Positions 177 through 50,721 of a stretch of 64,000 nt of DNA are shown here, piece after piece. The position numbers were made by a program, and so were the translations under genes. Under the pieces are notes generated by a model, which saw nothing but the letters and a program-made list of their open reading frames with translations, was not told where the DNA came from and ran no database searches. Positions within the stretch are counted from its first letter, which is position 1; the number at the start of each line of letters is the position of its first letter. Where the stretch lies: contig CM120640.1 of the NCBI GenBank assembly GCA_051362555.1, forward strand, positions 36,103,967 to 36,167,966. Direction: 5' to 3'. The stretch comes from Lingula anatina. Its lineage: Eukaryota > Animalia > Brachiopoda.

Positions 177-768
177 CTTGGACACTCCCTGGGCGTTCCG
201 AGAGAATTTTTTATAGCCTTGTGTTTCTGCGTACTGGCTGCAAGACATTACTGTACCTTTCGTATCTCCCCACTAGAATGCACGTAAAACGCACTTTTAA
301 TGGCTCAAATTGAAAATCGGAAGAAAATATACCTTAATTTCAGTTGGACTGAAACTGAGGAACCTTAAGCGATTTAACACAGCATATTAAAATGGAAATA
401 ACACGAAAGTATTTAAAACCTGGAAGAACACACATAACTGTTTAGTTGAAATGTTGTAGAGATTCTGCTGTTAAATTGCGGTAGTAAAAATTTTAACAGG
501 TCTCGAAAAGGAACTACTACTACAATTTGTAATGCAATCGCTATACAACTTTGAGCAGTGAAAGAATAATAGTTTGGCTAATGCAACCCAAAGAAAATTG
601 CATTAATATTGCCATCATCATGCAATAATTTTGGGCATTTGTTTATTAGGTCTATTTGTGATCCGTCTCATACAGCAGGTACGGTGGCATGTCTGAGTTT
701 CTCCAACATGAGATGTCAGAATGTATACAATAATCATTGACGGACAACCTTTTATTTTTACGTTCATT

Positions 769-830
<62 letters not shown>

Positions 831-1797
831 CTGATGGATATCGTCCCAGCTTTCGCCATGGTAAACCAGCACACAAGCAATGCCCCATCTCCCATACATC
901 AGAGCTAAGTAGAGAGGCGACTGCCGATGGATCTGAAAAGAATCGAAGATTTAATTTAATCTGCATTATAAAATGATTCATTAGTGTCCTAATTGGGAGA
1001 TAAAACCATCTCTAATAAGCACAAAGAAAACAGACATATAAAGATACATGTATTAGAATAATCAAAAGTGTTAGAATGTGACTTTTTTTATTGCTTTAGC
1101 CTTTCTTACCATGTCCCGAAATTCGTTTGCTTTGATCCTTCCATCGATAAAGATTCTCTTTGCTGCCTCTGTATCCCCGTGTACTATCGCCTCTACCAGT
1201 TTGGAATATTGCAGTACTAGATGCAGCCGGTACAGGTCGGTGGTTTTGTCGTGGGGAGGATAAAGGGAGCGTTCAGAATCGATATTTGCAAGCTGAAAAA
1301 ACGATGGGCAATAAAAGAACGAACAAATAATTGCTTCCGTTAGCTCCTCTTTATACTTATATTCTTCATTTTTACGATAAACAATTTTGATGTGATGTGA
1401 TTATTAAAAAAATTCTTATGATCAAATGATGTATATAAATATGAACCATTTTGAACTCGGTTTTGTATTTTGATTTTCATTTTACATATCTTATTTTTCT
1501 CATTTTAATGAGGTGATGGCTTACTGCTGTTTCCGCCGATTCCAGCAATGCCAACATTTCACGGTTAGCAAAATCACGAGCATATTCTTGAGCGCTCTTA
1601 TCTGCGTGGTAGACGTTGAGGTAGTAATAGCCATTTTCAAAAAGTCTTCGTATTTCTTTGACATTTTGAGTTAAGATTAGGTTGAGAACGTGCTGAAACA
1701 GGGGAAAAAAGATTTAGTTAAATTGCAATAAGTTTGATATTTAAACCTGTTTAATCTAATTCTGTTTACAATTCTTTTTTAGATAGAAATATTCTCC

Positions 1798-1838
<41 letters not shown>

Positions 1839-4254
1839 GTACTGCCGAATGTAAATTACAATACACAAAACAGAACGAATAAAGCATTGTACCATCAGTA
1901 TTTTAAAATATATTTTTTGTGTGACCATCTCACCTCGTCAAGAGTTCTTTCAAACTCCTCTGTTGGGTTTATGCGGGCCAGGTCTCTAGCGTTCAAGCCG
2001 TCCTGCAACGAATGAATTGTAAGGCCTTATTAATCGTGTAAATGTTAGTTAAGAAATAATTATCAATTTTCGATAAATCGGAGAACAATAGAGAAGCGCT
2101 GTGATCTATTTACCTGGGTTTTGATGGCTGGGTCGCCCCCATACTCCAAGAGTTGCCAGATGCGTGGTGACAGCCTCAAACACGTGGATATGGCCAGCTG
2201 CATGCACGTTTTGCCATGCTGTAGAAATAAATTATATTTTAAGTTCTGTTGCTGATTTTCCATATTTGTATTTGGCTGTCAGATATTCATTGCGTCATTT
2301 CATCAAAGAAATGCTGTTGATATGGGTGGATTTTGAACTCTCCACATAAACAGTTATGTTCAATTGGCCAAAGACAAAACCATTATAAAACTGATAGAAA
2401 AAGGATTTGATACCTTATGATGCAAAAGGTTACATACATGTACCACCCAACTTTCCCGAATGGTGCACAATAACATCAGTAATTTCATTAAGAAAATTGT
2501 TTAGGTTGTGAGTGCACAGTACTTAGAAAATAACAATATCGAGCATGCTTTAACAATTTTAACAACATAAAATGAGGTAGTTTCAAACGTTATTTCCGTC
2601 TCATACAGCAGGTACGGTGGCATGTCTGAATTTCTCCAGAAGTGTCAGTACGAACACAATAATCATTGACGGATATACGCTGTCCCGCTTATACTTTTTT
2701 CAATACAAAGAAATAAATTAAAAGTACATAAATAGTAAGTTGGACATTGCTTACAATGGCAAAACGCTCATCAAATATGTACTCATTTGGACTAGCCCCA
2801 CCGTGTAGCAGGATCGCTGGCAGGTATAACTCGTCTTTCTGGTGTGCCTTTAGAATGCTAAGCGATAGTGGAGTGTGGCCTCGGTAGGACTAAAACATAT
2901 AATGAAGTAATTAAAAGGGCAATTGATACAAAATATCTCTTCATTGTTTACTGTTTAAGTTGTACAGAAGCAGGCTTAAGAGTTCAAAGGAAGCCAGTGC
3001 CATGGTTTATCCGTCTCATACAGCAGGTACGGTGGCATGTCTGAGTTTCTCCAAGATGAAATGTCAGAATGTATACAATAATCATTGACGGATATCACGG
3101 TGCACTACTTCTGTTGCTACCAATGAGAGAGAGAGAGAGAGAGAGGCTGGGTGACAAAGAGAGAGAGAGAGAGAGAGAAAACGAGAGAGAGAGAGAAATG
3201 TGTAATAAACGAAACGTATATCGTACCGTATCTGTGAAGCGCGCGTTGTAAGGCTTTGCCTGCAAAACCTCGGCAAGTCTTCGTGGGTTCTGTTCAAGTA
3301 CTGCAAAATACACTTCCTGCACCGAAAAGATGAAATAGACATTCAGACAGCATATTATGCTCGAAATCACTCTGTATATAGTGAGAGTGAACGGTTTTCA
3401 ACAATTCTATCTTTCTAACTTACTAGCTCCTTTCCTCTTTCTGAAAGTTTCATCTTCTTTTGACATAGTATTTGCAATTGTCATTGCAAAGCTAATTATG
3501 AGTTAACATTCATATCACCTGTCTCTCCCTTCCTTCCTCCAGAATGCGTAATATCGAGGTGTGCCCGAGCTGTGTAGCTAACTGCATCAATGTCTTCGAG
3601 CCCTGACAAAAGAAAAATTGATATTTAATATAATTCAGACCTACCAGTATGTACATTTCCGACCTGTGTACACTGGGATTATGGATCTCATCTGGATAAA
3701 AAAGACCATTTATTTGTGTAAAATTAACCGAGTTGATGTGTTTTTTTTCTTCAAGCTTTAAATGGTATGAAATCATTACTTATTTAAAACTACGTTTGCC
3801 ACTATCCGTTACAACATTTTCCCCTAATCATTACAAGATATCAGTATTGATATTTCCCTGATTGAAGATGCTTATAACAATAATAAAGACAATACTATTA
3901 CCCTTGATATATTGACATTGCACCAATATTCCATGACCATTTTTCTTACACGTGCTTCATCGTTATTCCGAACCGCGGTCCACAGGTCCGGCTAGAGGAA
4001 CAGTAACAACAGGTTAGCATACCGTAGCATTCTAACATACACTAGCAAACAGTCTATGTAAACAAAACTTATAATGCAAATCTGGGTAATCAAAACAACG
4101 CGACATTTTAATGTATTTTTCATTCAGGTCAATGATTACAGTTTTTTTTTGACAAAAGAACAAGATTTACGTCGTTAGATGCCCTAATTTCTGCAACATA
4201 AATTGTCATAGGGAACGCAATCATCATTGATTATTGATCTAACTTTCATTGCTG

Positions 4255-4295
<41 letters not shown>

Positions 4296-6836
4296 GTGGT
4301 GATGGTGGTGGTGGGGGTTATACAAGAAAAACGTGCAGACAAACCTCGTATTTTTCAAAAATTTGAATCACTTCTTGTCTTTTACTTCTCAGGGCGTAGT
4401 CCTTTGCTCTGCGTCCCTTCTACAAAATAAGACACACATTTTCTCAGATATTTCAAATGTTTTTTTTTTCATATAGCAAAAATAATGACCACAGTGCATA
4501 TCTTAAAGTAGAGCTCAATATCAAGTAAAGTAATGTGAATCAATGGATGTAAATAAAATGATAATATTAGATACTACAATGTACCTCATTGTCAATTGAC
4601 AAATGTATAAACATAATCTTTCTAAAAACAGAACTAAAAGAATAACTTAATTAGCATAAGAAGTTAAATCAAATCCTCTATGGCAAGGCATGACATGTCA
4701 CTTATTTTTAGGAGACAGGCATTGCTAAAGATAATCACATAATCATGCAGACCATTCTTTATAATAAATGAAATAAATGTGACAAGCTCTGATATTCAGA
4801 CACGACAAATCAATATTTTATTACTCGCCTTATTCTTGATGGTAGCGTCTGCTCCAGACCTCAGGAGAGACTCCACAAGACACTCGTCCGTCCCCGGGTA
4901 GGCGGCATAATGGAGGGCAGTATTACCGTCCTGAAAATGAGGCGCGCTTTGTTTAAACAAAATGAAAGCTAGGCATAAGGCATAGTCATATAACATCCAA
5001 ACACACGAGTAAATTAAAGTTTTGATTTTTTTTCATATTTCCAGAAAAAATAATCAATGCTTTCTATTTGAAGCTTTAAGAGGGAGAAATAGTAGAGGGG
5101 GAAGAAATACTTCATAAACTGATTGTGATATTTTCATTTTAATTAATGTCAAATCTAAACACAATCTTATTCATTCACCCAAAGAATACATACTTTAATT
5201 CTTACGTATTTCGGCGGTCCGTGCAATCTTTTCAATTATAGACTTTCTACAGATTTTAAGTACGACAAATGTATGCCAAATTATGGTTATCAATCATAGA
5301 ACCCAATCTTTTGTGATACTTGAAAACTGCCCAATAGGCCTTTAATAGTTAGCCATAGAAATATACATAGCATGCGTAATTTTTCTTCTCAGACACTCCG
5401 GTACACGTACCTGCTTCATCCGAAGAGCATTAAGAAAATCCACCAATTCTTGGTCTTCTGTTTGAACAGCCTTCAATGTGGCTCTGCTTTCATTCTGATG
5501 CAAAAGAAATGGAGTGAGCACATATCATTTCTCATGACATGTAGATTCTAATCAATAGATCAAAATGAAATCTTCATATATATTGGAAAGATCTTGCGAT
5601 TTGGAAAAATGTTTCATTTAAGAACGTAGATGCAACGGGAGCGGGCGCTTACTTATTTAAAAACTCCATAAACCCGCTGCTGGATAGAGAAGAAAGTTGA
5701 GATGTCAAACATTTAAAGGCAATCTGATTGGAAGTGGCTAATATTCTAAAAGGACTTTTCGGAAAAAAGCAATTCTGCTGAAACATCAATATGCTCACTG
5801 CATATAAAGCAAGGCAAAAATAAAATCACGTTTTTGAAGTTGATAGATAAATGGGCATATGAATGAAATGATGTTTAAAATAAGTTCACAAACGCACCCA
5901 AGTGGCATTTACATCAATTCCTGCATTGACCAAACTGTAGATTTGTTCTTCGTGTTTGTTTCCCCACGACGTTAAAATATAAATCAAGCAGGTTTGTCCA
6001 GCCTGAAAATAAAGAAGGCATGATATCAGCAACAGCTGCGACCCTATCGTTGTTCAATTCACCTGTTACTGCTCATAATTTAGCTGTGATATGATGGCTA
6101 GTTTTAATAGCTTATAGAGTGAACCTTATATGGTAACGGCATATAATATATCACAACAATTCAGTTCATTTATGACTGTTTTTTACTTTTGGATTTTATC
6201 ACTGATATTGATAGAACAAATATGAGTATCTTCTATAAGTATCTGTGGTTGTGGTAGATCATTCCACATATTTATATAAGGTAGTTTAAATTTTCAAAAT
6301 CCTATCAATAAATATGGCTTACCCGCCGTTCATCCAAGTTGTAATTGTTCATCTTTGTAATCACTGTAGGGTTTAAAAAGGGACTAGATTGTAATTATCC
6401 TTTACCTTATTTTTCCGGTTGATGTCCAATCCTTTTGCTGGCGTGGTCAATGCATGCAAGCGTGTCCAATCGGTGGAGTTAGTGACCATTAGATCCATGT
6501 GAGTTTTGAACAGTGCTGGATCCTATATCAATATTCAATTGGATATTGAAAAAAGGCAGTTATGTTTCATACGCTGTAAACTATGTCGGAGGGAGGGGGT
6601 AGATATAGACATAAATAGCAATAGCCATGTGCATTATACTGATGACCATCACTTCCATTTACTCAAAACACGAGAATCTTCTTTTTTACAGGAAAAAAAT
6701 CTTCTTTTTTTTACATCTTCAATTCAAATTTCGAGCAAACACGACGCCTTGATCACTGTGGAATCCGAACAAGGGTCTAAAATGGAAAGATCCACGGTAA
6801 AAGAATACTTACCCCTCGACAGCACATGGGCTTCAT
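177..6836 (-). CDS. Multi-exon ankyrin-repeat protein (>=543 aa; 3' end lies left of the window)
   Basis: Hand-spliced exons, all with lengths divisible by 3 and AG/GT ends (one GC donor): 6813-6836, 6406-6522, 5898-6002, 5411-5494, 4829-4930, 4345-4419, 3902-3991, 3519-3602, 3227-3316, 2755-2889, 2114-2218, 1934-2002, 1525-1692, 1110-1292, 831-932, 177-272. Start codon sits in GCCACCATG. Ankyrin-like motifs: DINRKNK-AGQTCL, DGNTALHYAA...LLRSGADATIKNK, GHTPLSLS, HGKTCMQLA...LLEYGGDP, QSPLYLALMYG. Confidence 0.85.
662..744 (-). ncRNA. Candidate intronic box C/D snoRNA, copy 1
   Basis: Minus strand reads TCCGTC-a-ATGATTA (box C variant)...CTGA (D')...TGGAGA (C'-like)...GCCACCGTACCTGCTGT-ATGA (box D variant)-GACGGA. 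It has a 6-bp terminal stem and is sense to the host ankyrin gene. The guide is complementary to the conserved 28S sequence ACAGCAGGACGGUGGC. Confidence 0.75.
769..829. repeat. (AC)n(AG)n microsatellite; representative of many simple repeats
   Basis: Others: (AAT)n 1800-1837, 33618-33668, 46391-46433; (AG)n 3125-3195, 4260-4292, 8542-8578; (CT)n 33866-33907, 46629-46700; poly-T 29688-29733; poly-A 34227-34270; (TA)n 58990-59033. Confidence 0.95.
2595..2673 (-). ncRNA. Candidate intronic box C/D snoRNA, copy 2
   Basis: Same stem, boxes and D-guide as copy 1. Nearly all differences fall in the D'-guide (TTGTGTTCGTA) and the D'-C' loop. Confidence 0.75.
3010..3092 (-). ncRNA. Candidate intronic box C/D snoRNA, copy 3
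   Basis: Nearly identical to copy 1. The terminal stem extends to 7 bp (ATCCGTC/GACGGAT). Its 3' end is ~120 nt upstream of the acceptor at 2890. Confidence 0.75.
4165..4232 (-). pseudogene. Decayed or divergent relative of the snoRNA repeat
   Basis: Minus strand TCAATGATGA-TTGCGTTCCCT-ATGA-CAATTTATGTTGCAGAAATTAGGGCAT aligns with TCAATGATTA-TTGTATACATT-CTGA-CATCTCATGTTGGAGAAACTCAGACAT. The rRNA guide and 3' stem are lost. Confidence 0.45.
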
Positions 6837-13113: not shown

Positions 13114-14299
13114 TTATTCAGTCTTTTCTAAATGGTCCATGTATGCACCAGTCACAAGCTCTTTCTTGTCTATACCCAACTTCTGCATGAGATCTTCGGC
13201 TATTGCCTGCCCTTCCTCAAGGCTTTGTCCATCCTTCATCATTACCTAAAAACAGAACATGTCATCATTATTGTATTTCTCTGTTTTTGTTTACTAATAG
13301 CAACAAATTTATCTTAGGACAAAAGGAGGTGAACAGTGTTTGCATAAAAACTTTTATCTTTGAGAATAGCAAATGAATATGAACTGCAGCGTTTCCAGCA
13401 ATAAAATATTTGTCAAAGTCTGATACCTCTAGCTCCATAAAATCTCCTAGGCCATTTACTTGGTCTACATGAACCCTTGTCTGTCCCACCATAAAGAAGT
13501 ATCGGGTTTTCTTTACAACTCCCCTTATACCAATGGCTTGCCTAAGCGTTTCCTAAATTCACAAAAAAAAAAAAAGAATGTATGGCCATTTCAGTCAATC
13601 AGAATAAATCCTTTGCAGTATACAAAGTAATACTTTGAGCAAATTAACAATTAGTGACATAATGAGAACTTATCAAAAATAGATAAAAATAAAATAATAA
13701 TAGGTAAAATAATGAATAAAAATAAATGTTATTTTTATTACCTTAAAACCAGATGGATCTGGAATTGGTGTTTTCACAAAGTGACTGGATTTTGGACCCT
13801 CTGTATCTTCTCTTTCATAGTAAACCAACTCTGCACCTGTTGACTGTTAATAAAAGACACCTTATCTTTAAAAATAATTTATATACAAGAACTTTGTGTG
13901 AAATGAACATATATATATACACACAGTAGTTCAGACAGCTTGGAATCCAAAGCTATATTTTTCCTGATGATACAGCAAAATTCAGTGTAATGTAAATTAA
14001 ATAGAGACCCCATAGGAACCTGATGAATGTGCCCAAATAAAAAATGTTAATATTTACCACTAAAAGAAATCAAGCTAAAAAAATGGATGAAAATAAATTG
14101 ACCTTTTATAAATTTGATCAGATATTCATAAACTTACTTGTCGACTTTTTTGCTCCCGTAATTTCAGCCTGCCATTTGGTGTGACAAAGAAGGTGTCCTC
14201 CTGAACGAGTACATCTGAAGAATCGCTCAAGCTGGCTGCCTTTGATTTTAGCTCTTCTAAATTCGCTACCTTCGCCTTGATCTCTACATTTGTTGGCAT
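13114..14299 (-). CDS. CYTH-domain protein, CyaB (class IV adenylate cyclase)/triphosphatase-like, 173 aa
   Basis: Exons 14138-14299, 13742-13843, 13427-13552 and 13114-13245, all phase 0. Motifs NVEIKA, QEDTFF, RLKLR, ELVYYER, VKKTR, HVDQV..LG.FMELEV, AYMD. Confidence 0.9.
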
Positions 14300-14860
14300 G
14301 ATAACAGATTTATTTTGAAATTTAGCTAATTGATAATGCAAACAAAACAAAATTCGATTACCACGCATGAAGTGTTTTTTAATGCTCAGCAAGTAAGTTG
14401 TGTTTCTTACTGAATGGAATAACGTATCAGTTAAATATGTCAATGTTGTTTACACTTGTATTTCCCTCTTCTTTCGACCCACATGGCAGTGCTTTTCGAT
14501 CTCCATACAGTAAAGAATGGCACCACACTGTATTATTGCGCATAAAGTAGTTCCTTGTAATTTTACAGAATTACACACTTGTAAATTATGCATCTTTCGT
14601 TTTTATGTTATTTTAGTTTTAATAGTGCACATTTAAAGTTAATTAATCAGATAAAACATAACAGAATGAATGTGTTTTGTATTTATGTTCGGTAGATTTA
14701 AAGATTTCTTGTTCGCCATTTTGAATATTCAAAAAATCGTTTCCTGAATTTCCAACATATGAAATTTTATGTCTAAGCTTATTGTTTTAAATAATGAGAA
14801 TTCTTTAAAGCTGGATCAGGTCTTGGACATAATATATTTGAGTTTATTACAAGATCAGGT
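14300..14860. promoter_or_regulatory. Probable bidirectional promoter between the CYTH gene and KMT5B
   Basis: Head-to-head start codons ~1.1 kb apart. YY1-like CGCCATTTTG at ~14714. A + strand non-coding exon donor CAG|GTAGGT at ~14858. Confidence 0.45.
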
Positions 14861-25100: not shown

Positions 25101-28100
25101 CATGTAGTTAAATAAGAAACATCACACATTATGTTTTTCATTTTTCATTTTCATTTATGTTTTTCATTTCATATGAAATGTTTGCATACTGGGGCAACAG
25201 AGTGAATTACAAGTCCATGTATTCATTTGCTATTTCAGGAAGCCATAGACAAGTATGATTCTGTGATCATCAATCTGGAGTTTGCAAGGGACCTGCAGAA
25301 ACAGTTTATGCAAATTCAGGCGGAGGTAGGATCCGTGTCTTCAAATAAATGAAATTCCCAGTTCTTCAGAATATAAAAATAAACGTTGCTTTATCATTAT
25401 TGTTTTGATTATTGAGTTGTTTTTTTGTACCCAAAAATCCAATTATGGAAATGTTAATTGTATTGTTAATTGTATTGTTTAAAGTATGATCTTATTGTAC
25501 CTTGTTTCAGTCTGAAAAGATGCTGAAGAAGCAACAGAAGCGTGAAAAGGGTGAGAAGCAAGCACAAGAGGCACGGCGAATGCGTGAACTTTTACATCTT
25601 CAGAACGTCTTGGACAACATGGGGTCTGAAGCTGTGAGGCAGGACTTTAAGGAAGGGAAAAGAGGCGCAGTGGTTAGTATCTTTGAAACTTGGGACTTTA
25701 GTGAAAAAGTGACTTGACCACGATGTAGAACCTTGTAGAGAGCTGGTATTATTTGAAATATTGGACAGTCTGCATTTTATCTTTCAAATATCTCCATCTC
25801 AGATAGTTTCATAAAATTCTAGTAGAACCTTCCCTCACAAATATAATACCAAAAATTATAAATTCAAATTTACATTGAATTTAAATGCTTTCATATGATT
25901 TTATTCAATTGTTCCAGGTTTTGACTGATGAGAATCTTAACCATCTGGACGAGCTGTTCAAGTTAATCAGTCCAACCAGAGAGGGAGAGACCAGGTGAGA
26001 AATTTGCATGGGTCATCCTGAAAGTTATGCGTTTGGTTGTATCCATTTTCATTAAGAAGATGGAATGCAATCATGTTAAAATTGACAATTTTTTACCAGC
26101 AATACAGTGCACGTAAATGTCATTCTTTCAAACAGTCAGATTTCAAATTTGAATTGAAAAATGGCAGATATAAATATCACGTAACATAAGGCCAAGTTTG
26201 ACAAGTGGTCAGTTTAACTTTAAAGTCGAACAAACCAGAAGCAAGTCCTTGAATATTAAGCACTAAGCAATCCTGTGCTGCTTCAATCTTTCAAGTTATG
26301 AGAAACAGCTGAATGAAGCCTCTGAACACATTGTAAACCTGCTGGATGCCAAGGACAAGCCAGTCTTGGGGACCACCTACAAGGCTCTGAAAGAACTCCT
26401 GAGCAAGATTGATGGCTGTGGCTATTTTACCAACCCCCCTGCTGAAGAAACGGCAGACCAGCAAGACAATGGTATGGATTTGTCTCTAATTAAGTACACT
26501 GAAAAGACATACATAAAATAGCATTAAAACCAATTTTTATTTTGAAAGGGGGAAAATATTAAAATTTAAAAAAAAGTAGAACAGCTTTACTCTGAGAGTA
26601 GAACAGCTTTACTCTGTGTGCTATGGTTAAAACTGACCTAATATAGCAGAATTTTGATCAGGTTTCATGATAAATTCCAGCTTCTGAGGACAGCAGCGGA
26701 AACAGTGAGGAGTATGTGATGGTGAAGACGGATGAAGTCCCTGATCAGAGTTCCTCTGAGGTGCGTATGACTTCCCTGCCTCAGGACAGTGCAACCCATC
26801 CTCCTCAAACCCAGCAACCCCCACAGACCCAGCAGCAAGGCAACGGAACAAACATGGTGGGCATCTCATTCTATACTGAAACCCCCTCCCAAGAAGCCAT
26901 GACTGCAGCCGTTGCTGCAGCAGCGTATCAAAATCAGCAAAGGCCATTCCAGGAGATTGTGTCGTCGGTTCAGGGCACGTACGACTTTCTCCAGGAATCC
27001 CAGATTGAGCCAGACTCCCCCCATGTGGACCCAGCAGTTGTAGCTGCTCAGCCCATGGTGCCAAAGATTCCTCATCCACAATCACAGACAGGTAAGTTGC
27101 TGTTGAAGGTCAGATAGTCATAAAACAAAATATAAAATGCCACTCAGGCATGGAACTTCAAATGTGAAACACATTTTTTGTGCGTGGGTCTTTCATTGTG
27201 ACAAAGGTGTATTTATGTTTATGGGGCTACACCTGAAGTTTTGAATATGTTAGATGACCAATGATCTTCTTGAGCTCTAATGACCAGTTTTTCCTTTCTG
27301 TAGTTCTTGGATAAAAATTTTTTTTCTGCAATATTATAGATGGCAGTGGTCTCTCCTCACAGTCTTGGGGTGACCAGGCCGATCATCATAGCGAACAGCT
27401 GCAGGAACAGCAGCAGCAGCAGTATTTCCAGTCAGAATCAACACAACCACAAAAACAAACATTACAAAGTCAGCAGCAATCCAGCTATGACACGTCTGCC
27501 TATGGCAGTCAGGGCTATGACATGATGTCACAAAATGCGCCATCCTCCTACGGCAGCACTGGCCTGGAACATACACACATGAACTTGAATGACGGAGATA
27601 GAACGCTGCCTGATGTGCCCCCTAGTATTCCTTTACCAAACCAGACGACCCTCACAGATCAACAGGCTGACGTAAGTAATATGTGAGATTAAAGAGTATG
27701 ACTGGCACTGTTTTAAAAATTTTTAAAACAAATATGAATATTTGGAAAATTGGTCAGTATATTAATACCATTGCTATTTAAAAAATAAGTATTGATGCCA
27801 AACATGGGAATATTTCCAACTTGTTCGATTGGGCATTGGATCATAATTTTTTCTTTAGACAAAAATACCAGACTCTACTGCTCATTTTCCATCCATGTTG
27901 CTTCCAGGAGAAGAAGACATTCACAATGAACGCCAGTGCCCCTGTATTCCAGTCTATGTATACTCAGGCTCCAGCAGCTCACACAGAATCCAGCAGCATT
28001 GCTACCACAGTGGATAGCATGGGACAGCAAGACATGACGTCAGACTATAACTGTAAGGACATGGATAGGTGGTTTTAATGAGTAGTGTGAACTGAAACAG

Positions 28101-29686
28101 ACATGGACTTTTTCTATGTAATAGCAGAATTCCAAGATTTGGAGTTGAATTCTGATAGAGCCGAAACTGACCCCTGGCTGAATAAGTGTAGGACTAAACA
28201 TTTTTTTTGAAAACCCAGAATGAGTTAGTTGGGTCTAGCTAAGTTGACCCAACTCCACCGGGACTCTCACTAAAAGATTGGCTTTGAAGCTGATGAAATA
28301 TTCCAGTTAACATTTACAGTAGTCACTTGTCTATGTTTATGTCTAACTGACTTGTGAAGTCATTTTAATGCAGAAATTTTTGTGAATTGTTTGACATGTT
28401 TCTTGACATATTGTTAAATATCTTTTAATGTCTTGGTATCGTAATTATATTTTAAAATATGAAGGGAAAGAATCATTCCTATTTTTAGTTTTACTAGTAA
28501 ATTATTCATTTTCCAAGCAGCAGGTGGCTATTCACGGAATCAGTTCAATGGCTATGGTGGACGTGGTGGCTCAAGAGGTGGACCACGTGGAGGACGAGGA
28601 ATGAACTCTGGATACCGTGGTGGTAGAGGTGGCCCCCCTTTCAATTCAAGAGGGGGTTTCCGGGGAGGAAGAGGCGGAGGAGAATCGAGGGGAGCAAGGG
28701 GTAAGTCATTCTTTAACTGCAGACTTTTTCTGACATTTGTGGCTTTGGAAGAAGTGATGATTGCCTTGTTGGTGACCATGTTAAAAATGTTTGTCTTCAG
28801 TGTACTAATAGATATTTTGCTAAGAGTAAGGAGAGAAAAATGTGTGCAGTATGTGCTTTTTCTTTTTCCTGTTCCCTGGCATTTTGCTTCACTAATCAAT
28901 AGGAATAAGAGGAGGAGGTGGGAGTGCTTATTTTGTTTGAGCACGCAAATCATTGGCCCAATGCCACACTGTACCTCACAAAATATTTTCTACCTATCAG
29001 TTCTGGGTGGAAGGCTCTCACAAAAATGCTTCAGTTTGCTTTGTTTCTCCTGTTATGAAGTATGAGATGTGATTTTCACAAATATATTTTTTTGGGGGAA
29101 ATTTGGTATCATGTTAGTCCTGTTTAATTCCCATTGCCCCATTTTATCCAGCATATGAATTGTCCAAAGTATGTAAGTTGTCCCAACTGTTTTTTCAGAT
29201 TTTCAAGGTCTGTTTCTAACCTATCAGAAACCAACTGAATGAATAAAGAAGCTGAAGCTTTGCCTTTTCCTTTGTGATGAATACCATTTGCTTTCTTTCC
29301 ACCTGTTGATCTCTTGCATTGAATAATCTTTCTGATTTGTCTAGGTTTGAGTAAGACAAAAAAAAAAAATAATATACTATATTTTAAAAACCCTATCGGT
29401 TTTGCCCCCCCCCCCTTTTCCCCCTGATCACCTGAGCATGCTGCGTGTTAACTGTGTGCTCCTCTGTGATTTGTAGGCACATATCATGGCTACCCGCCTC
29501 GTAGCAACTACAGGCCTGAAGGATACCAGGGAGTGAATGGTGGGTTGGACACTTATAACAAGCAAGGCAGTGGTGCACACAGGGGTGGAGGTGCGTGGGA
29601 GCACTTGGGCAATATGGAGTTTCCATTTAAAAAAAAAAAAAAAAAGAGTTGAAAGAGGAAGCTCTTGGTGTTAGGGATGGAATTCT

Positions 29687-34272: not shown

Positions 34273-37200
34273 CCGACCACAATGCACCTTATAAACGAAT
34301 ATATTTACTTTATAAATCTATTATTCGAATGGATCCTGGATAAATGAAAATGGAAAATCGAGCGCTCTTCTACAGTAGGGGCCTATAGATGTAGGGGGCC
34401 TACGACATGAGCAAAACGTGCAACCGTGGGACTGAAAAATCCCTATTAAATCAGTTTGACACATAACTCAGTTTTCATGGGGCTTCAAAAGCAATATTTT
34501 ATTAATTTCTTAAGTATAACATTGAAGGAAGGTACCTTTCGAAACATTTAAAAATAGGATGTGCTTGTTTACACGACAGATCATACGCCCAGTTTTGAGA
34601 AATGTTGACATACTGGTCCGCGGATTGCATGGAAGCCGATCCCCCCCCCCCCCCTTGGCGTGGGGTTTGGGGCCCGCTGAAGGGCCCCGAAAGTTTTTGG
34701 TATTTTAGAGGGCAAACGGTGCCGTTTGGTACGGTTTAGAACTATGATCCAGTGCAGGCCTACTACTAGTATAGTATATTTCAAGAGGGGACCATTAGTG
34801 TGATTTTTTCAGAAATCGAACGGGGGATCAGGACCCCCCTGACACCCCTCCTAAATCCGCCTCTGAAATCCATATTTGTTCGTTTAAATGCGTGAAAAAG
34901 AAGCGGATTATGTTGTTTAGTCTACGTCTTGTTGTTTACGCCAAATGCGCCATCTATAATGTAGTGGATAGTGTTGAATGAAAGTTCTGACAGCGTGGTC
35001 TTTGAATGTATTCCGTTCTATGACATGGTTTTAGAAGTCGTGTGAATAGGGGTACTAGAGACACACTTGTAAGAGAGGAAAAACAAGTGTTGCGAAGTGA
35101 GCGAAAATGAGAAAAGTAATCAGGCCAGAGGTAAGCATAAAGCTCAAGTGTGTGTGTGTGTGTGTGTGTGTGGGGGGGGGGGGGGGGTCTGTCTAATTAA
35201 GGATATTGTCACCCTTCGCCCAATAAAGAACAAACAAGATTGGGTAGGATTGATTCATTCATTGAATTTTATTCAATTTTATCCAGAAATGAATTTTATT
35301 ACCTGTTGTTTATATTCCAGCACAATCAAGCAAGTGCAGAGGCAACGTTTGTTACATTGAGGACCCTAGTTTCACAGACTTTCAGAGTGCAAGGCAGAGA
35401 TGCCAGTCATTTGGAGGCGATGTGGTTATGGTTGACACACTTGAAGAGAGAAGATTACTGACTGAAATATGTCTTCGTAGTAAGTACATGTATCTATATA
35501 TTACAAGAACTGCATATCATGATTGGGTTTATATTATGATATTGGTCCAATCAGGGAATTATATCAGATGGCTCATGCGGTACAGGTCCTGTTCCAGTTT
35601 GTCCCGTATTTTGGTACTATTAATAACTCCAGTCAGTTCAAACATAATAAGCTAGCCACATGTAGCTATGCCTTTTTCTTGTCTTAATAGAAAAAACGGA
35701 ACAGTGATGATGCCAGTAATGGTATGTTCAGACTGTTACATATACTAGTACTAGTATCTCTCCATAAAAAGATAACTAAAAAGAAATAAATATTGTAGTT
35801 GACATCATTTGGGAAACCAGCCATTATATACTGTGGAACAGTGTATAAGTAATTTGTGCATTGTATTAATAGCTATTATATAGTTTTATAGAATTACAAT
35901 ATTTAACTGAAGAAATAGTTTTCTCAGTCATTTTGTTGTACAATGTAATACACAATACATTATATACAATAAAGTTTATTTTCATGTCGGAAAGAATGAA
36001 ATTAGCTATATTCACCAACAGAATAAATTAAATAATGATACATTAATTGTTTACTACTACTTAATGTAATCTGTTAGGTAACTATACTGCACCGTATCTA
36101 CTGATGGGAGCAACTTACAGTTCAGAACAATGGGTGTGGTTTACTGGAGAAGCAGTAAGTCCATCAGTCATGTCTTGGGCAGTTGGGCAGCCAGAAGATC
36201 CTTCTGCACAGCCATTTCTGTGTATTGATTCCACAACTGGTCTTTGGCATGATTGTGCAAGTGATTTACAGGGAGTTTTGTGTGAGACCCCATCATTCTG
36301 TTCAGGACTGAGCTGCTGCCCTGGCTTAAATAGTACCTGTAGAGTAAACTTACCTGGACATGGCGGCTGTTATTGTGATGAACACTGCTTAACAGTAAGA
36401 GATTGTTGTGTAGACTATGTGGATACCTGTGTAGGTATGCAAATTTTGTTTTTATATTATACTCAACATTTTGTTATCTCATATAAGTTAAAGAGAAGTA
36501 CTGTTTTACTTAAAATGAACTGCTAGTAGAAAGTCAAGTTCCTCCCTCTGGTCATTGACTTGCACCATAAAAAAAACACATTTTTTTCATGTAGGACATC
36601 CATGTATAATAGGATGATTTTTACACATCCCTGGACACTGAAATGCATATTTATGTTAAATTTCTGTTTCTGATAGTAATACATTTATTCTTTTCCTCAG
36701 TGATTGATGAGTGCTTTGCTTACACAACTGTTACTGGTGAAATATCAAGAAGTTCAATGTACCACAAGAATTCTGTTGAAGCAGTAGCATGTGATGATAA
36801 AATAGACCACGGCTGGTTAAGATTTGACATGATAACTGGGAATGATATGCCTGTGACCTGCCATTTTGAAGGTGACTGTGGTACAGATAATACCATATGG
36901 CTTAATGGTAGGTACCTTTAAATATATATCTTTCATTGTTATAGACAGGCACTGTATATAAAAAGTGTCTGAATAGTGTCTATATATATTCTGATTAGTA
37001 TGGCTGTCCACAGTCTGTCTCTCCCTGTCGTTGCTGTCGCCGTCGCCATCCCTGTCACTATCAACGTTTTCCCCATAACTGCCAAACCATATTTTTGTTT
37101 TACTTTAAATTTACTGAGTGACCTTGTTTGGTAAAGAGGCAGGATACATTTACATTTTTCGGTAATTATTCTGTTTTTTTTCCACAATTTTTTTTTACAT

Positions 37201-39875
37201 TGGCCCCATAACTTTTAAACTGTATTTTTGTTTTACTTTCAATTTACTGAGTGGCTTTGTTTGGTAAAGGTGCAGGATTTTTATAAAAAATCAGCATGAT
37301 CGCTTTACATTTATAGTTATTATTCTTTTTTTTGTGTAAAATTTTTATTTTTCACACAGTAACATTTCCATTGGCTTTTATATCCCACATGGAACTGAAT
37401 CACTTCCTAGTTTTTCAATGGCCATGTTACCTGTAGTACATAATGTGAGAGGGTGAGAGTGATTATGCTGCTTGAAAGCATTATGTAACAGTGCATCAAA
37501 ATTGTCCAAAACATTATTGTTTGCACTTTTTTCTGCAAAATGTCTGAACATTTGTCAGCTTTTCTGCCTTGTTTCCTGTATGGTGTCTGTATATTTGTTA
37601 TCTGTGCTGTCTAGTTATAGAAATGTGTCCTAAATGTGTATACCAACTCGGAAAACTGTAATCAAAAGCTCACGTAAGGTGCATTCACAATGAATCTGTC
37701 ATACTAACTATGTAGTGCACACTAATTCCACTGGGACTCTCTTGGCATTGTGAGAGAATATAACCGCCCGGGGGGGGGGGGGGGGGGGTTTGTTCGAAAG
37801 AACCACTCTTTTTGGTGGAAAAATTTCCACTATGGGTAAAATTTATCTATCTACTTGAGGATTTTGTGGTAAAAGGTCCACTTTTTCAGAAAACGACCCT
37901 CCCCCCCCTCTGAAATTGCTGGCTACGGGCCTGCCACCTTATAACTGTAGTGAATTAGAGGCCAATTGAATGATGTTGTGATTTTATAGTTTTTTGAAAA
38001 TTGCAAAGGGGCTTTCCAATGTAAAATAAAAAAAATTCCTGTGACTGGATCCAATCCAGGTAAAACATGTTTTGTGCAATGTTATCCTATGGGGATTTTT
38101 TTTTAATTTCAGGATTTTTTATTCAGAATAAGATAAGGGCCATCAACTAAATTTGGTGGTCAGATCTGGGTACCAGCACATTGATTAAAAAAAATCTGAG
38201 CAATACATTCAGTATTATGAGCCAGACAGTGTAAACAGACATACCTATAAACAAACACACAAGCACACACACACACACAAACCGACCAAACAACATACCT
38301 TGCAATTCTGGAAAGGGGATTTAAAAAAAAAAAAATAATAATAATAAAATAAAATAAAATAATAATCCATCATGGAGGTCATGAAATAGCAAAGAAACAT
38401 TACCATTTATCACTAAATAGGGGAAGTTCAAGCACTTACTTTATCACAATTTTTGCATCACAGGTTCCTTACCCTCTGCTGCTGATGGTATCATTAACAG
38501 AACTGCATGTGTAAAGAATTCCACTGTTTGTTGTGCCAAGACGTATGACATACAGATTAAGAACTGTTCTACATACAATGTGTATCATCTGCCACCTGTG
38601 ACTCAGTGTCCTGAGCGTTACTGTATAGGTCAGTGCTTGTCTCGTAATTTTTCATTGATAATGAATTAAGATACATATACTAGTTCCTATATGTATCTGG
38701 GTACATGTATTTACAATGTACAAGGTGACTGTTTGAATTTTAATTTGTCATTTGTTCAAGTTTTCACCATGGCACAAAAATACACAAAATAAACATTAAT
38801 GTTATATATGGGCATGCTAGTATACAGCAATTTTATGCATTGCATGTAACTGATGTTAAAATGATTGAACTGACTGTAAAATTTAATAAGATGCACATTT
38901 TTAATGGTTGTACATGTAAAAAAAATTCTTATTTCCTCATCTGGTTTACAATTCATTTAGGTGATAAGGCACTCTGTCCCCCAGGAACTGTCTCAGAAAA
39001 TGGATTTGAACCAGGTTGCTCAGGTTAGGTCCATACATTTATTAAATTTAAAGAGTTATGCATATGATGAAGGTTTTATAAAGGTCACACTTTGTCTAGC
39101 ACTTGACAAGCATAAAAGTATACTAAGATGGATAAATTAAATAATTGAATATATTTACTCAGTTTTTAAGAATTGGCAGCATTTGGTTAACTCATATTAC
39201 AGTAAAACAAAAGGGAGAACAACTGTTCTTATTATATACGTATTTCACATTAAATACATTGTAAACAACTCACAAAAATATGATAAATTCTATTTTACCA
39301 CCAAAACGGTGGTTATTCTGGAATTTGTGCTTGCCATCAGATCACGTTACCTCCATAGATGGCTACACTCTGTAATAATCTCTAAAGGGAATATTACAAA
39401 AACAAAAACAAAAAAAAACTTTTTAGGAAAAAACCAGGGACTAACTTTGAATGTCGGAATGGATTCATTAACCAATGGTCAGTATGGTAAAATTGTCGTT
39501 TACCCCAGGAAAATCCATTTTTTTTGGCCAAAATGAACCTTTTAACAAACATCCCTTTAAATAAACAGTTTGCGTATAAAAGTTTTCATTTTGTTAGATA
39601 ACTTCCCAAATATAACGCAGCAACCAGACATTCAAGTGGATGAAAGAGTTGTACGCTATACTTTTGGAAATATACCAAAAAAAGAGCTTATGTTCACCTG
39701 CCTGCCCTACTATGATGAAGTTCCTCCAGAGCGGCTGTCTCAGCTTGTCTTTCATGTGGAATGGTACATTGATTCACAACTTGTCCATGAGGAGGACAGC
39801 GTCAATGTTACTGATTTGCCTGCTCAGCTCAGAGAAAGTGTCTGGCTGAGCAAATCAATTACTCTTGGTTTTCAG
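33782..39875 (+). CDS. Truncated duplicate of the VWDE-like gene (SP-CTL-SMB-D8C-partial Ig-like, 436 codons, no stop); may splice to 40379-40567
   Basis: Exons 33782-33860 (signal peptide MEGGLGSQRYGKIIFLVLTVFSVWSA), 35321-35479, 36078-36434, 36701-36907, 38464-38628, 38961-39023, 39598-39875. The frame is open throughout and splice sites are intact. Confidence 0.8.
36940..37614 (+). mobile_element. Degenerate Helitron/Helentron-like non-autonomous element (also at ~50130-50945)
   Basis: 5' ATAGAC...GTCTAT inverted motif, GTCGCC-type microsatellite, two ~135-bp internal repeats, ends with CTAG-T. Confidence 0.5.
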
Positions 39876-40378
39876 GTAAGAGGATATGTGATATTTTTAT
39901 GGCTTTTATAGGCTACATTTAAAACCAGAAATTTGGCAGAAATAGTTTGTCTGGGGTCATATCTTTGTGTGTTCACATTCTTACTCCCCACCCATCTGCA
40001 CCAATTGATCCTCACCTTTATCATTACTCCTCCACACCATTCCTTCTCCAAATCAACACATATCTAACACACTTGAGACCAAAATGTCGCAGAACTTAGT
40101 CCTAAGTCAATTTAAGATTGATATTGTATGGAGTGTGGTGTAAAGGTGGGAGTTGTAGCAATAAATGCTACAGGTGATAATTGAGACGTCATAACTAAAT
40201 TGTTATTGGGGAAGGGATAATGGTGGTGAAAATTGCAATAATGATAATTCTGAGTAGATGAACTAGATCGGTCAACACAGTCTGCCCTTTTTGTTAACCA
40301 GTCCTTCCTGTAAATGTAGAACATTAACATGAGTTTGCTTTTTTTTCCTTCTTGTTTACATTTTCTCTTGTATTTCAG

Positions 40379-40781: not shown

Positions 40782-41974
40782 CGGTAAAGTCTTGAAAATT
40801 TCGTCGTTCTTAAAAATTTCGTCGGCAGACGATTTTCCGCCGACGTAATTTTTTTCCCTTTGAAAACTTCGTCGACCTTGAAAATGAGGTACTCGATAAT
40901 TTTTGAAAAGTTCGTCACCAAATATGGCCGCGTTGTCCGGCTCAAACATGAAGGTAATGCGTCAGTTGATTCAAGACAATGATACGATCAGGATATCATT
41001 GCCGATAACACTCTCAATGGGAGATAGGAACAATAGTGCGCCCCTGCGAGCGGTTACTCACAATATAGATGGTTTAGATGTGAATTCCCGTTCTCAATTG
41101 CGGGAACGTCGGCCTTTTGTCTTTAGTTGCATTACTATTACCTGGCTTAAGGTGCGTTATCAAGCCGGCAAATAGAAGTCACAGGCCGCGGCTTTGTCAT
41201 TTGTAACGCCGTTATTGTTATCGGCGGCTGTCCTAAATGAGGAAGACACAATGAAAAAATCAAGATATTATCTCGAAGTGAAATGTACCCGTCACTTCTA
41301 TTCATGTCCATGTTCAATTTAGGACCATTTAACGATTACCTGGCTCGTACATGGAGATCGTTCGCAATGCGAATGGGACGAGATGGCAATTTTCATATCT
41401 TCAGCGGAGAATCGTTCGCGTAATATCGTCAACAGATCGTTCGCGATCCAAAAGAGACGAGAAGATAATTTTCATATTTGTAGCGGACTCCGTTCGCATA
41501 AGATCATCAGCGGGAGATCGTTTGCGATTCGAGAGAGACGAAAAAGCAATCTTCATATCTTCAGCGGGAGATCGTTCGCGATGTAAGTGAGAATAAAATG
41601 CACTTTTCATATTTGTTCAAGGGAACTTCGTTCGTGGAAGATCGTCAACAGGAGATCATTATTTTAACCCCCCCCCCCCTTTGAATTTTATAAATAATAT
41701 ATATTTTTCATTTTATCTTTAACCCCCCCTTCCCCCGCTCACGGCATATCTTCAGCGGAAAATCGTTCGCGTAATATCGTCAAGACTTTGTTCGCGTAAG
41801 ATCGTCAGAGGGAGATCGTTCGCGATCCGAGCGAGACGAAAAGGCAATTTTCATATCATCATCGGGAGATCGTTCGCGATGTAAGCAAGAATGAAATGCA
41901 ATTTTCATATTAGTTCAAGGGATTTAGGGAACTTCGTTGGCGGAAGATCGTCAGCGGGAGATTATTTAACCCCC

Positions 41975-47055: not shown

Positions 47056-50000
47056 CCGACCACAATGCACTTTATAAATGAATATATTTACTTTATAAAT
47101 CTATTATTCGAATGGATCCTGGATAAATGAAAATGGAAAATCGGGGCCTACACATGTACGACATGAGCAAAACGTTGTGCAACCGTGGGACTGAAAAATC
47201 CCTATTAAATCAGTTTGACACGCAACTCAAAGTTTTCATGGGGCTTTAAAAGCAATCTTTTATTAATTTCTTAAGTGCTGTATAACATTGAAGGAAGGTA
47301 TCTTTAGAAACATTTCAAAATAGGATGTGCTTGCTTACACGCCCAGTTTTTGAGAAATGTTGACATACTGGTACATGCACAGATGCACTAAGGATAGCGG
47401 TTTATTATCATCTAGATACCGAAAATGAGTTTTTTCCTACCTCTGTGCTGATTTTAAACAATGTTAAAAATAAAAAAATCCCTTTGAAAATATAAAATAT
47501 CGTCTATTATATTTCTCGTTGCTATGTATAAGAATAGGCAACTCAAAGCTTTTATCGTCAGTTTAACATCTTTCTATTTTTATATGAAATTACAATCGAT
47601 ATGGGGCGTAACTTCATCCCAGAATGAAATTTTATCACAAAAATTGGCATAGTTGACCACAAGTGTATGGGTTACAATCACGTTCCACTATTTTGGTTTA
47701 AATGTTTTTGTTATGGGGTTATTAGCCCCTAATTGCAGTTTTTCAATAAACAAAGGCATTATTTTGCTTTATCAACGATAAAATCTGAACTAAGGCTTTG
47801 AAGAGAAATTGTTAGTTTAGATCCAGTGTAGGCCTACTACTAGTAGGCTATATTTCAAGAGCTGCAAGGGACCTTAAGTGTGATTTTTCAGAAATCGAAC
47901 GGGGGATCAGGACCCCCCTGACACCCCCCCCCCCCTAAATCCGCCACTGGAATCCATATTTGTTCGTTTAAATGCGTGAAGTAGAAGCGGATTTTCTAAT
48001 GGTTATCATATGTATGCTGTTCAGTAGTTTAGTCGACGTCTTGTTGTTTACGCCAAATGCGCCATCTATAATGTAGTGGATAGTGTTGAATGAAAGTTCT
48101 GACAGCGTGGTCTTTGAATTTATCCCGTTCTATGACATGGTTTTAGAAGTCGGGTGGACAGATGAACTCTAGTGGTACTAGAGACACATTTGTAAGAGAG
48201 GAAAAACAAGTGTTTCGAAGTGAGCGAAAATGAGAAACGTCATCAGGTTAGAGGTAAGCATAAAGCTCAGTCAAGTGTGTGTGTCGGTGTGTGTATGTGT
48301 GTGTGTGTGGGGGGGGGGGGGTCTGTCTAATTTAGGATATGTGTCACCCTTCGCCCAAAACTAACAAACAGGATTGGGTAGGATTGATTTATTCATTAAA
48401 TTTTAGCAAATTTTATCCAGAAATTAATGTTCTTACATGTTGTTTATATTCCAGCACAATCAAGCAAGTGCAGAGGCAACGTTTGTTACATTGAGGATTC
48501 TAGTTTCACAGACTTTCAGAGTGCAAGGCAGAGATGCCAGTCATTTGGAGGCGATGTGGTTATGGTTGACACACTTGAAGAGAGAAGATTACTGACTGAA
48601 ATATGTCTTCGTAGTAAGTATTTATGTATTACTGGAACTAGATATCACATAATGACAAATGTGATGAGATATGGGCCCAATGTGAGCGAATGGCTTTATA
48701 ATATTGGTCCAATGTGACTCATTGGCAATTTAATTGACTTGACTTGCTATCTGAGTTTGCAGTACAAAGTTGCACCTTGTAAAACTTCAAGAAGAATGGC
48801 TCATGTGGTACAGGTCCTGTTCCAGTTTGTCCTGTATTTTGGTACTATAAATCACTCTAGTTAGTTCAAACATAATATGCCAGCCACATGTACATATGTA
48901 GCTACTGTATATGCTTTTTTGTCTTAATAGAAAAAAGGGCACAGTGATGGTGCCAGTAATGATATGTTCAGACATATACTAGTATCTCTCCATAAAAAGA
49001 TGACTAAAAAAAATTAAATATTGTAGTTAATGGGAAACCACCCATGACACCGTTATGTACTGTAGTACAGTGCATAAGTAATTTATGCATTGTATTAATA
49101 GCTATTATATAGTTTTATTAAATTACAGTATGGTACTGATGAAATAGTTTTCTCAGTCATTTTGTTGTACAATATAGTACACAATACAATAAAGTTTATT
49201 TTCATGTTGGAAAGAATGAAAGTAGCTATTAAATAATGATACATTGTTTACTACTACTTTTTGTAATCCATTAGGTAACTATACTGCACCTTATCTACTG
49301 ATGGGAGCAACTTACAATTCAGAACACTGGGTGTGGTTCACTGGAGAAGCAGTAAGTCCATCAGTCATGTCTTGGGCAGTTGGGCAGCCTGAAGATCCTT
49401 CTACACAGCCATATTTGTGTATTGATTCCACAACTGGTCTTTGGCATGATTGTGCAAGTGATTTAGAGGGAGTTTTGTGTGAGACCAAACGCTCATCATT
49501 ATGTCTAGGACTGGGCTGCTGCTCTGGTCAAAATAATTCCTGTAATGTAAACTTACCTATACTTGGCAGGTGTTTTTGTGATGAACATTGCTTAAGAGCA
49601 AACGATTGTTGTGAAGACTATGTGGACACCTGTGTAGGTATGCAAATTTTGTTTTTATATTTTACTAAAAATTTTGTATTTTATATGTAAAGAAATGTTG
49701 TTTAATGTCAAATGAACTACTAGTACTAAATCAAGCTCCTGGCCAATAAACCTTCTTGCACCATAAAAACATTTTTTTTCATACAGGGCATCCATGTACA
49801 GTACAGTAGTAGGATGATTTCCACACTGAAATGCATATTCATGTTAAATTTGTTTCTGATGGTAATACATTTATTCTTTCCTCAGTGATTGATGAGTGCT
49901 TTGCTTACACAACTGTTACTGGTGAAATATCAAGAAGTTCTATGTACCACAAGAATTCTGTTCAAGCAGTAGCATGTGATGATAAAATAGACCACGGCTG

Positions 50001-50683
50001 GTTTAGATTTGACATGATAACTGGGAATGATATGCCTGTGACCTGCCATTTTGAAGGTGACTGTGGTACAGATAATCCCATATGGCTTAATGGTAGGTAC
50101 CTTTAAATATATATATATATCTTTCATTGTTATAGACAGGCACTGTATATAAAAAGTGTCTGAATAGTGTCTATATATATTCTGATTAGTATGGCTGTCC
50201 ACAGTCTGCCTCTCCCCGTCGTTGCTGTCGCCATCCCTGTCACTATCCACGTTTTCCTCATAACTGCCAAACCATATTTTTGTTTTACTTTAAATTTACT
50301 GAGTGACCTTGTTTGGTAAAGAGGCAGGATGTGTTTACATTTTTCGGTAATTATTCTGTTTTTTTCCACAATTTTTTTTGACATTGGCCCCATAACTTTC
50401 AAACTGTATTTTTGTTTTACTTTCAATTTACTGAGTGGCTTTGTTTGGTTAGGGTGCAGGATTATAAAAAAATCGGCATGGTCGCTTTACATTTACAGTT
50501 ATTATTCTTTTTTTTTTGTGTGTAAAATTTTTATTTTTCACACATTAACATTTCCATTGGCTTTTATATCCCATATGGAACTGAATCACTTCCTAGGTTT
50601 TCAATGGCCAATCTCTCTCACCCTCTCACATTATGTACTACAGGTAACATGGCCATTGAAAACCTAGGAAGTGATTCAGTTCC

Positions 50684-50721
<38 letters not shown>

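Follow-up and report, generated by a model that had tools for sequence, protein, structure and literature searches.

A 64,000-nucleotide (nt) stretch of the genome of the brachiopod Lingula anatina (GenBank assembly GCA_051362555.1, contig CM120640.1, positions 36,103,967 to 36,167,966; hereafter the window, in whose numbering all coordinates are given) carries three short, closely related elements in three introns of one ankyrin-repeat gene. We consider it probable, at roughly 60%, that these copies are paralogous intron-encoded genes for small nucleolar RNAs (snoRNAs) of the box C/D class and that their D guide would direct 2'-O-methylation of a cytidine in 28S ribosomal RNA (rRNA) equivalent to human C1966 and yeast position 1227. 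Judged from sequence, they likely represent a lineage-restricted C/D methylation guide that is predicted to be functional, and it is the complementarity to rRNA together with the pattern of conservation that carries the case for a predicted snoRNA. An earlier note, made from the letters of this DNA alone, had proposed a triplicated snoRNA of a mollusc; the taxon has to be corrected, Lingula being a brachiopod.

Predicted box C/D anatomy of the three copies

Copy 1 (662-744, 83 nt), copy 2 (2595-2673, 79 nt) and copy 3 (3010-3092, 83 nt) all lie on the minus strand, each within its own intron (273-830, 2219-2754 and 2890-3226, respectively) and sense to the host, at 81-134 nt from the intron donor and 120-389 nt from the acceptor. 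Placing the introns by tblastn bore out the positions, the one-per-intron arrangement and the orientation that the earlier note had given. All share one layout: the 6-bp (base pair) stem, AAU and GAUUA come first, followed by the D' guide (11 nt) and CUGA; beyond a loop stand the D guide (17 nt), AUGA and the strand that closes the stem. In copy 1, these parts are the 5' stem at 744-739, box C at 737-731, the D' guide at 730-720, box D' at 719-716, a weak C'-like motif at 705-699, the D guide at 688-672 (with a bulged A at 680 and, at the fifth base before box D, or D+5, a G at 676), box D at 671-668 and the 3' stem at 667-662. The corresponding parts of copy 2 are box C at 2666-2660, the D' guide at 2659-2649, box D' at 2648-2645, the D guide at 2621-2605 (bulge at 2613, D+5 at 2609) and box D at 2604-2601, while those of copy 3 are box C at 3085-3079, box D' at 3067-3064, the D guide at 3036-3020 (bulge at 3028, D+5 at 3024) and box D at 3019-3016.

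The TCCGTC/GACGGA-type stem and the boxes described previously (ATGATTA for C, CTGA for D' and ATGA for D) were recovered in every copy. Five of the six pairs of the terminal stem have a pair probability of ~1, and in copy 3 the stem lengthens to 8 bp. The kink-turn geometry is exact, with a 3-nt bulge, tandem G.A pairs, a U.U pair and then a U-A pair (C6:D1) replacing the usual G-C. The proposal that the two box changes compensate for one another is supported; the term "co-varying" does not, as the copies are invariant at both positions and no covariation is visible here. A scan that enforced this geometry with a stem of at least 6 bp returned three places in the 64 kb, all of them the copies, and 40 Markov-resampled windows held a mean of 0.125 such kink-turn C/D patterns; since the three copies amount to one event, the kink-turn pattern alone reaches only about p=0.1 and is modest evidence. 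The assignment of the copies to a predicted box C/D snoRNA anatomy is supported. As a separate observation, the bulged A and AUGA would permit a 5-bp hairpin between guide and box D (668-682, 2601-2615 and 3016-3030, minus strand), which would compete with the kink-turn.

The boxes had also been put forward as a novelty, which does not stand. The same AUGAUUA and AUGA pair is listed for Dictyostelium CD30, CD33, CD34, CD37 and OR6 (PMC8817022, supplement), and the same change in GtNM-R12-14 of the Guillardia nucleomorph is described as compensatory in PMC6461891, so that the box variant is already established. The AUGA D box of CD30 is reported to serve the RiboMeth-seq-mapped 26S-Um2683 (PMC8817022), and archaeal double mutants regained L7 binding (Kuhn 2002, as cited in PMC6461891). 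Furthermore, the snoScan scores given for such Dictyostelium boxes are positive (7.81 and 3.77; PMC8817022, supplement), so a probabilistic scanner need not miss them, as had been feared. There is no sign of homology between these RNAs and the Lingula copies, and the box variant is thus likely convergent; the novelty lies in the predicted site and not in the boxes.

Predicted pairing with 28S rRNA

Target tests were carried out on large-subunit (LSU) rRNA proxies rather than on Lingula's own rRNA. As had been claimed, the invariant D guide is complementary to 28S rRNA with one bulged A, pairing with 16 nt as 8 bp, the bulge and another 8 bp, and the duplex can be extended by 3 bp beyond a bulge in the target. 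The duplex energy is -31.4 kcal/mol for the 17-nt guide and -33.4 kcal/mol for 20 nt, as compared with -21.7 kcal/mol for the runner-up site in a 3.4-kb LSU proxy, and shuffled guides reached 16 paired nt in 0 of 3000 trials (best, 14). For three of four LSU proxies the copies were the only places in the window with a 16-nt antisense match containing at most one bulge; the fourth proxy added 2 window sites. The target stretch named in the earlier note proved to be real: it is present and invariant in the Rfam LSU_rRNA_eukarya consensus, falls at human 28S 1962-1977 in the published fragment 1939-1986 (PMC11364045, Table 1) and also occurs in general 28S primers and in flatworm 28S primers (PMC3607561).

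As predicted, the D+5 base, a G, points to a cytidine. Its partner is C1241 of the model, which lies in a 5-bp helix and is equivalent to yeast 1227 and, counting along the published fragment, to human C1966. The target is presumably part of helix 42/43. The GTPase centre is placed at helices 43-44 in PMC8351944. If the known pathway applies, an RNA of ~70-80 nt would be released from the spliced intron, Snu13/15.5K would bind its C/D kink-turn, and Nop56, Nop58 and fibrillarin would then assemble. The D guide would pair with the 28S strand entering the GTPase-associated centre, where the fifth base before box D would mark the target and fibrillarin would methylate the paired cytidine; the 8 bp nearest box D would keep the site in place within the enzyme, with the more distant 8-11 bp supplying additional pairing to make up for the bulge.

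The bulge itself raises another reading, which we regard as very unlikely, namely that these are C/D snoRNAs directed to some other RNA in which every one of the 17 guide bases finds a partner. Such a target might be a variant of Lingula 28S carrying one more U, a small nuclear RNA (snRNA) or a pre-mRNA 5' splice site, the last being listed because the complement of the guide reads CAG/GUA. A fixed bulge is unusual in a guide and would disappear with a fully matching partner. However, a chance match of 16 nt to the invariant LSU core would be most improbable given the shuffles above, no perfect 17-nt complement occurs in the window apart from the copies, and an extra base opposite the bulge occurred in 0 of 82 pattern-selected rRNA-like loci, none of them known as Lingula. 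The likeness of the complement of the guide at 672-688 to a 5' splice site (CAG/GUA), and that of the guide to what we take to be the 5' end of U1 snRNA, are probably coincidence.

The predicted site among known ribose methylations

The site at human C1966 (yeast 1227) appears on none of the lists of ribose methylations that were compared; Euglena, trypanosome, nematode and archaeal lists lay outside this comparison, so that the site may be known there. For human, mouse, frog, fish, fly and planarian, no ribose methyl is listed in the GTPase-associated centre, and the segment is described as unmodified in human and yeast in a passage of PMC8351944. A literature search found no RiboMeth-seq study of Lingula. 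The next base 3' corresponds to Dictyostelium 26S-Am1463, which stands on identical rRNA sequence (PMC8817022) and which Sklias Table S4 gives as Dictyostelium-only, equivalent to fly 1444 and yeast 1228. Am1463 is reported as a mapped, development-dependent ribose methylation that is assigned only via a weak duplex with CD9/CD13 (PMC8817022). Additionally, position 1361 of planarian 28S, which corresponds to this C or, if the numbering is shifted by one base, to the A after it, has control scores of 0.88-0.92 and 0.80-0.83 at both read ends (PMC11649923, Dataset EV2). It was not called by the authors of that study and showed no drop upon fbl-1 knockdown and hardly any upon fbl-2 knockdown, whereas Am1266 clearly drops. 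Since fibrillarin knockdown leaves it almost unchanged, this signal may be an artefact of structure common to both data sets.

These observations bear on an alternative that we hold to be unlikely, in which the copies are genuine C/D snoRNAs and bind this stretch of 28S to a different end: methylation of the A at +6 (the Am1463 equivalent), or chiefly a folding-chaperone role in which they keep helix 42/43 open. Such an outcome would fit the mapped methyl on the adjoining A in Dictyostelium, the +6 exception that exists there in CD16 and the protection of planarian 1361 at both read ends in controls; moreover, the duplex exceeds the 10 bp that fit the enzyme, and the bulge is retained in all three copies. 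The D+5 rule is nevertheless general and points to the C, the planarian signal is uncalled and barely answers to fibrillarin knockdown, and known chaperone snoRNAs are described as mostly longer, independently transcribed and conserved (PMC7038934).

The predicted site lies 95 nt past the U38 site in 37 of 65 proxies. An origin from SNORD38, suggested by the pairing of CD9/CD13 with this stretch, was considered and rejected, the Lingula guide being weak at the U38 site (-13.9 vs -33.4 kcal/mol) and no SNORD38-type family matching at E<=10.

Conservation and origin of the copies

Copies 1 and 3 are 97.6% identical (2 of 83 bases differ), and copy 2 is 87-88% identical to both. The earlier statement that variation falls mostly in the D' guide and loop was confirmed: 11 of the 83 columns vary, through 7 substitutions and a single deletion of 4 nt, and each of these columns lies between box C and the D guide. 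None of the 45 stem, box and D-guide columns varies (P ~0.001, for columns defined after inspection of the data). The D' guide is the same in copies 1 and 3 and differs at 4 of 11 bases in copy 2. In three LSU proxies, the D' guides of copies 1-3 gave chance-level, G.U-rich matches of 8-11 nt with no common site. The D' guide is likely idle, as its own +5 position differs between copies and the rRNA proxies offer no convincing target for it.

Outside the copies, ungapped comparison of the flanks gave 7-16 identities in 40, and local alignment was significant in none of five upstream pairs, with 355-1778 of 2000 shuffles scoring as high. The earlier view of the flanks as unrelated is therefore right for the unique sequence but passes over a (CT)n run that stands 25-35 nt upstream of copies 1 and 3 and of the fourth paralog described below (785..829, 3125-3196 and 4260-4292, respectively, minus strand). 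Copy 2 has no such run, and only one further run of this kind occurs on the minus strand of the window. Flank homology beyond the shared (CT)n is not claimed here, as shuffles reach the same scores. An origin of the guide as a captured antisense 28S fragment was also discarded, the similarity ending at ~19 nt.

Sharp ends and unrelated unique flanks would fit copies that do not work, either a small dispersed repeat resembling a miniature inverted-repeat transposable element (MITE), in which the stem would be the terminal inverted repeat of 6-8 bp, or silent retrocopies whose parent snoRNA gene lies elsewhere. The TA on both sides of copy 3, the difference of only 2 of 83 bases between copies 1 and 3 with identical idle D' guides, and the atypical host also speak for this explanation, which we judge decidedly improbable. 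Target-site duplications had been named beforehand as a mark of a MITE, and none of note is present: none of the three copies has a flanking direct repeat of at least 4 nt (none at all at copy 1, 3 nt with an offset at copy 2 and 2 nt, the TA, at copy 3), nor is there a poly(A) tail. The copies share one orientation in one gene with one per intron, no further copy occurs in the other 59 kb of the window at E below 0.4, and the changes spare the boxes and the guide. Furthermore, a MITE fails to explain a kink-turn or a 16-nt rRNA complement directly before box D. We consider it likely that the copies arose by local duplication of intron segments within the host gene rather than by transposition; after duplication the flanks would have drifted and a fourth copy would have decayed or been re-targeted.

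A fourth, diverged paralog

The tally of three copies was correct as far as it went and missed a fourth, diverged paralog at 4124..4232 (minus strand), in the intron at ~3992-4344 upstream of the copies. A profile search (nhmmer) located it at ~4161-4232 with E 8.5e-5. Its 5' half survives, including a canonical box C ATGATGA at 4227-4221, a D' guide at 4220-4210 and a D' ATGA at 4209-4206. At the places where copies 1-3 have their D guide and box D, both have decayed in register, and this joint loss speaks for the predicted guide. The CTGA at 4127-4124 could serve as an alternative box D, in which case copies 1-3 would have a G6:C1 counterpart here; it could equally be a product of decay. No Rfam family matched this paralog. 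All 11 nt of its D' guide pair (two of the pairs being G.U) with conserved LSU sequence close to the peptidyl-transferase centre at -16.0 kcal/mol, and 308 of 5000 shuffles (6%) matched that pairing in the 3.4-kb pool; a target in the peptidyl-transferase region is thus a lead only. Just 3' of the paralog, the 11 nt at 4128-4138 repeat, in inverted orientation, the box C region that copies 1-3 share (E ~2 in the window). It could pair with the paralog's box C, and a chance origin is possible.

Family and homologue searches

In agreement with the view that no known family is involved, Rfam gave 0 gathering hits in the 64 kb. The weak Rfam matches over the copies were all to C/D families with other guides, at 10-21 bits (best 20-21 against thresholds of 49-58); that only C/D families appear among them is a point for the snoRNA reading. 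SNORD100 aligns end to end with copy 2 at 20.4 bits against a gathering threshold of 58 and has a different guide; none of the named families SNORD100, snoR1, snoR77Y and SNORD38 reached its gathering threshold. No Rfam family guide was seen to be antisense to the target.

The guide-plus-box-D pattern was found at 106 metagenome loci, 82 of which are antisense LSU rRNA and the rest without snoRNA context, and at 3 bacterial loci in genomes; none of these 109 matches has a box C upstream. A profile of the three copies gave two 24-nt partial matches in all 185 loci, and the guide-only pattern gave 69 loci in viral contigs, of which one (L016) is LSU rRNA. The IMG/VR contigs L016 and L177 bear eukaryotic LSU rRNA at one end, likely through host contamination or chimeric assembly. 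Literature searches on Lingula snoRNA returned nothing on these RNAs by title or abstract start, those on mollusc or lophotrochozoan snoRNA found nothing, and those by guide or target letters gave no snoRNA paper by title.

Host gene and points against the prediction

The host is a multi-exon ankyrin-repeat gene on the minus strand (177..6836) that matches Lingula anatina LOC106168592 (541 aa), with one exon 98% identical to it and Pfam Ank found in its protein. Exons were fixed by tblastn of the 541-aa Lingula protein together with splice sites, over a mapped span of 6836-177; those adjoining the copies are 4419-4345, 3991-3902, 3316-3227, 2889-2755, 2218-2114, 932-831 and 272-177 (minus strand). 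Splice sites are AG acceptors and GT donors with one GC donor, apparently near 4829, and the final codons lie beyond the window or are unmapped. All exons mapped within 177-4930 are phase 0, and a weak GT donor at 830 runs straight into (CT)n. No full-length relative was found, the 29 other matches being generic ankyrin proteins at 11-55% coverage.

Several features weigh against the predicted methylation guide. The host, on this sequence comparison, is a lineage-restricted ankyrin gene, which we assume to be atypical beside the ribosome-related hosts of other snoRNAs. Across the copies D' is an identical CTGA in all three and C' is only a weak match, and the fold of the entire RNA is no more stable than that of shuffled sequences (z -0.8 to -1.7), as is common among C/D RNAs. 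In the naked RNA the 3' half of the guide can pair with box D, with a probability of 0.78 in copy 1 and 0.49 in copy 2. The chief doubt concerns the bulge, which at -9 leaves only 7-8 uninterrupted pairs next to box D, and the 82 rRNA-like loci had no extra base to close it; Cavaille and Bachellerie reportedly found in 1998 that bulges are tolerated in GC-rich duplexes. Under common rules for target prediction a duplex needs 7-20 pairs and may contain no bulge, with human duplexes given as 8-19 bp (PMC5027482; PMC8817022). Finally, no homologue was found in the searched collections, which hold little animal DNA, so that this absence means little. RNA data gave 0 reads on 1850-3115, exons included, in four of nine runs picked by species label and with no control for the organism's presence; poly(A) or 150-nt libraries would miss an 80-nt RNA, and the zero count is thus no test of expression.

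Significance

If real, this would add a ribose methyl to the factor-binding centre of the ribosome in an animal; on the lists compared, the sites in that centre are those of plants and amoeba only. It would also provide a natural bulged guide duplex under purifying selection, of a kind that standard target predictors discard, and would imply that lophotrochozoan snoRNA sets include families absent from Rfam. The general view of C/D snoRNAs would be unaltered, as the box variant and clusters of paralogs in one host are already established. A more far-reaching scenario, conceivable if on the doubtful side, is a snoRNA evolved and amplified in brachiopods whose bulged 16-19-bp duplex would open helix 42/43, yielding the first GTPase-centre methyl in animals or a stalk-base chaperone, with the canonical-box paralog re-aimed at the peptidyl-transferase region.

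Other features of the window

Elsewhere on the plus strand, exon-like open reading frames at 26627-29065 with Q-rich and RGG-rich segments presumably belong to a gene resembling caprin, and exons at 35293-39911 and 48400-53260, in a tandem duplication ~13 kb apart, resemble what we take to be C-type lectin and somatomedin-B-like domains. These are followed by exons that we assume to resemble a von Willebrand D/EGF protein. On the minus strand, an exon at 14126-14449 presumably resembles a CYTH/CyaB-type adenylate cyclase domain. Tandem arrays lie at 56211-57035 (161 nt x 5.1 copies) and 41354-41612 (79/54 nt).

Comparison with known systems

The copies share with intron-encoded box C/D guides in general their size, terminal stem, kink-turn, D' box and antisense element before box D, as well as a sense position in introns and the presence of several paralogs in the introns of one host; they differ in belonging to no Rfam family, in their bulged guide, in a lineage-restricted ankyrin host and in a predicted site that is unlisted. 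The box-variant snoRNAs of Dictyostelium and Guillardia carry the same substitution in box C and box D but have other guides and targets, and those of Dictyostelium are intergenic. Plant guides, including Arabidopsis snoR22 (Am1260/1263, Um1275/1278), are likewise C/D guides of GTPase-centre rRNA, with sites ~26-41 nt further 3' than the Lingula site and none listed near C1234. Dictyostelium CD9/CD13, of the SNORD38/snR61 type, differ in having canonical boxes, a main target at Am1370 (human A1871) and a short H42 pairing with G.U pairs, yet they address the same rRNA stretch, and the methyl mapped there lies one base 3' of the predicted Lingula site.

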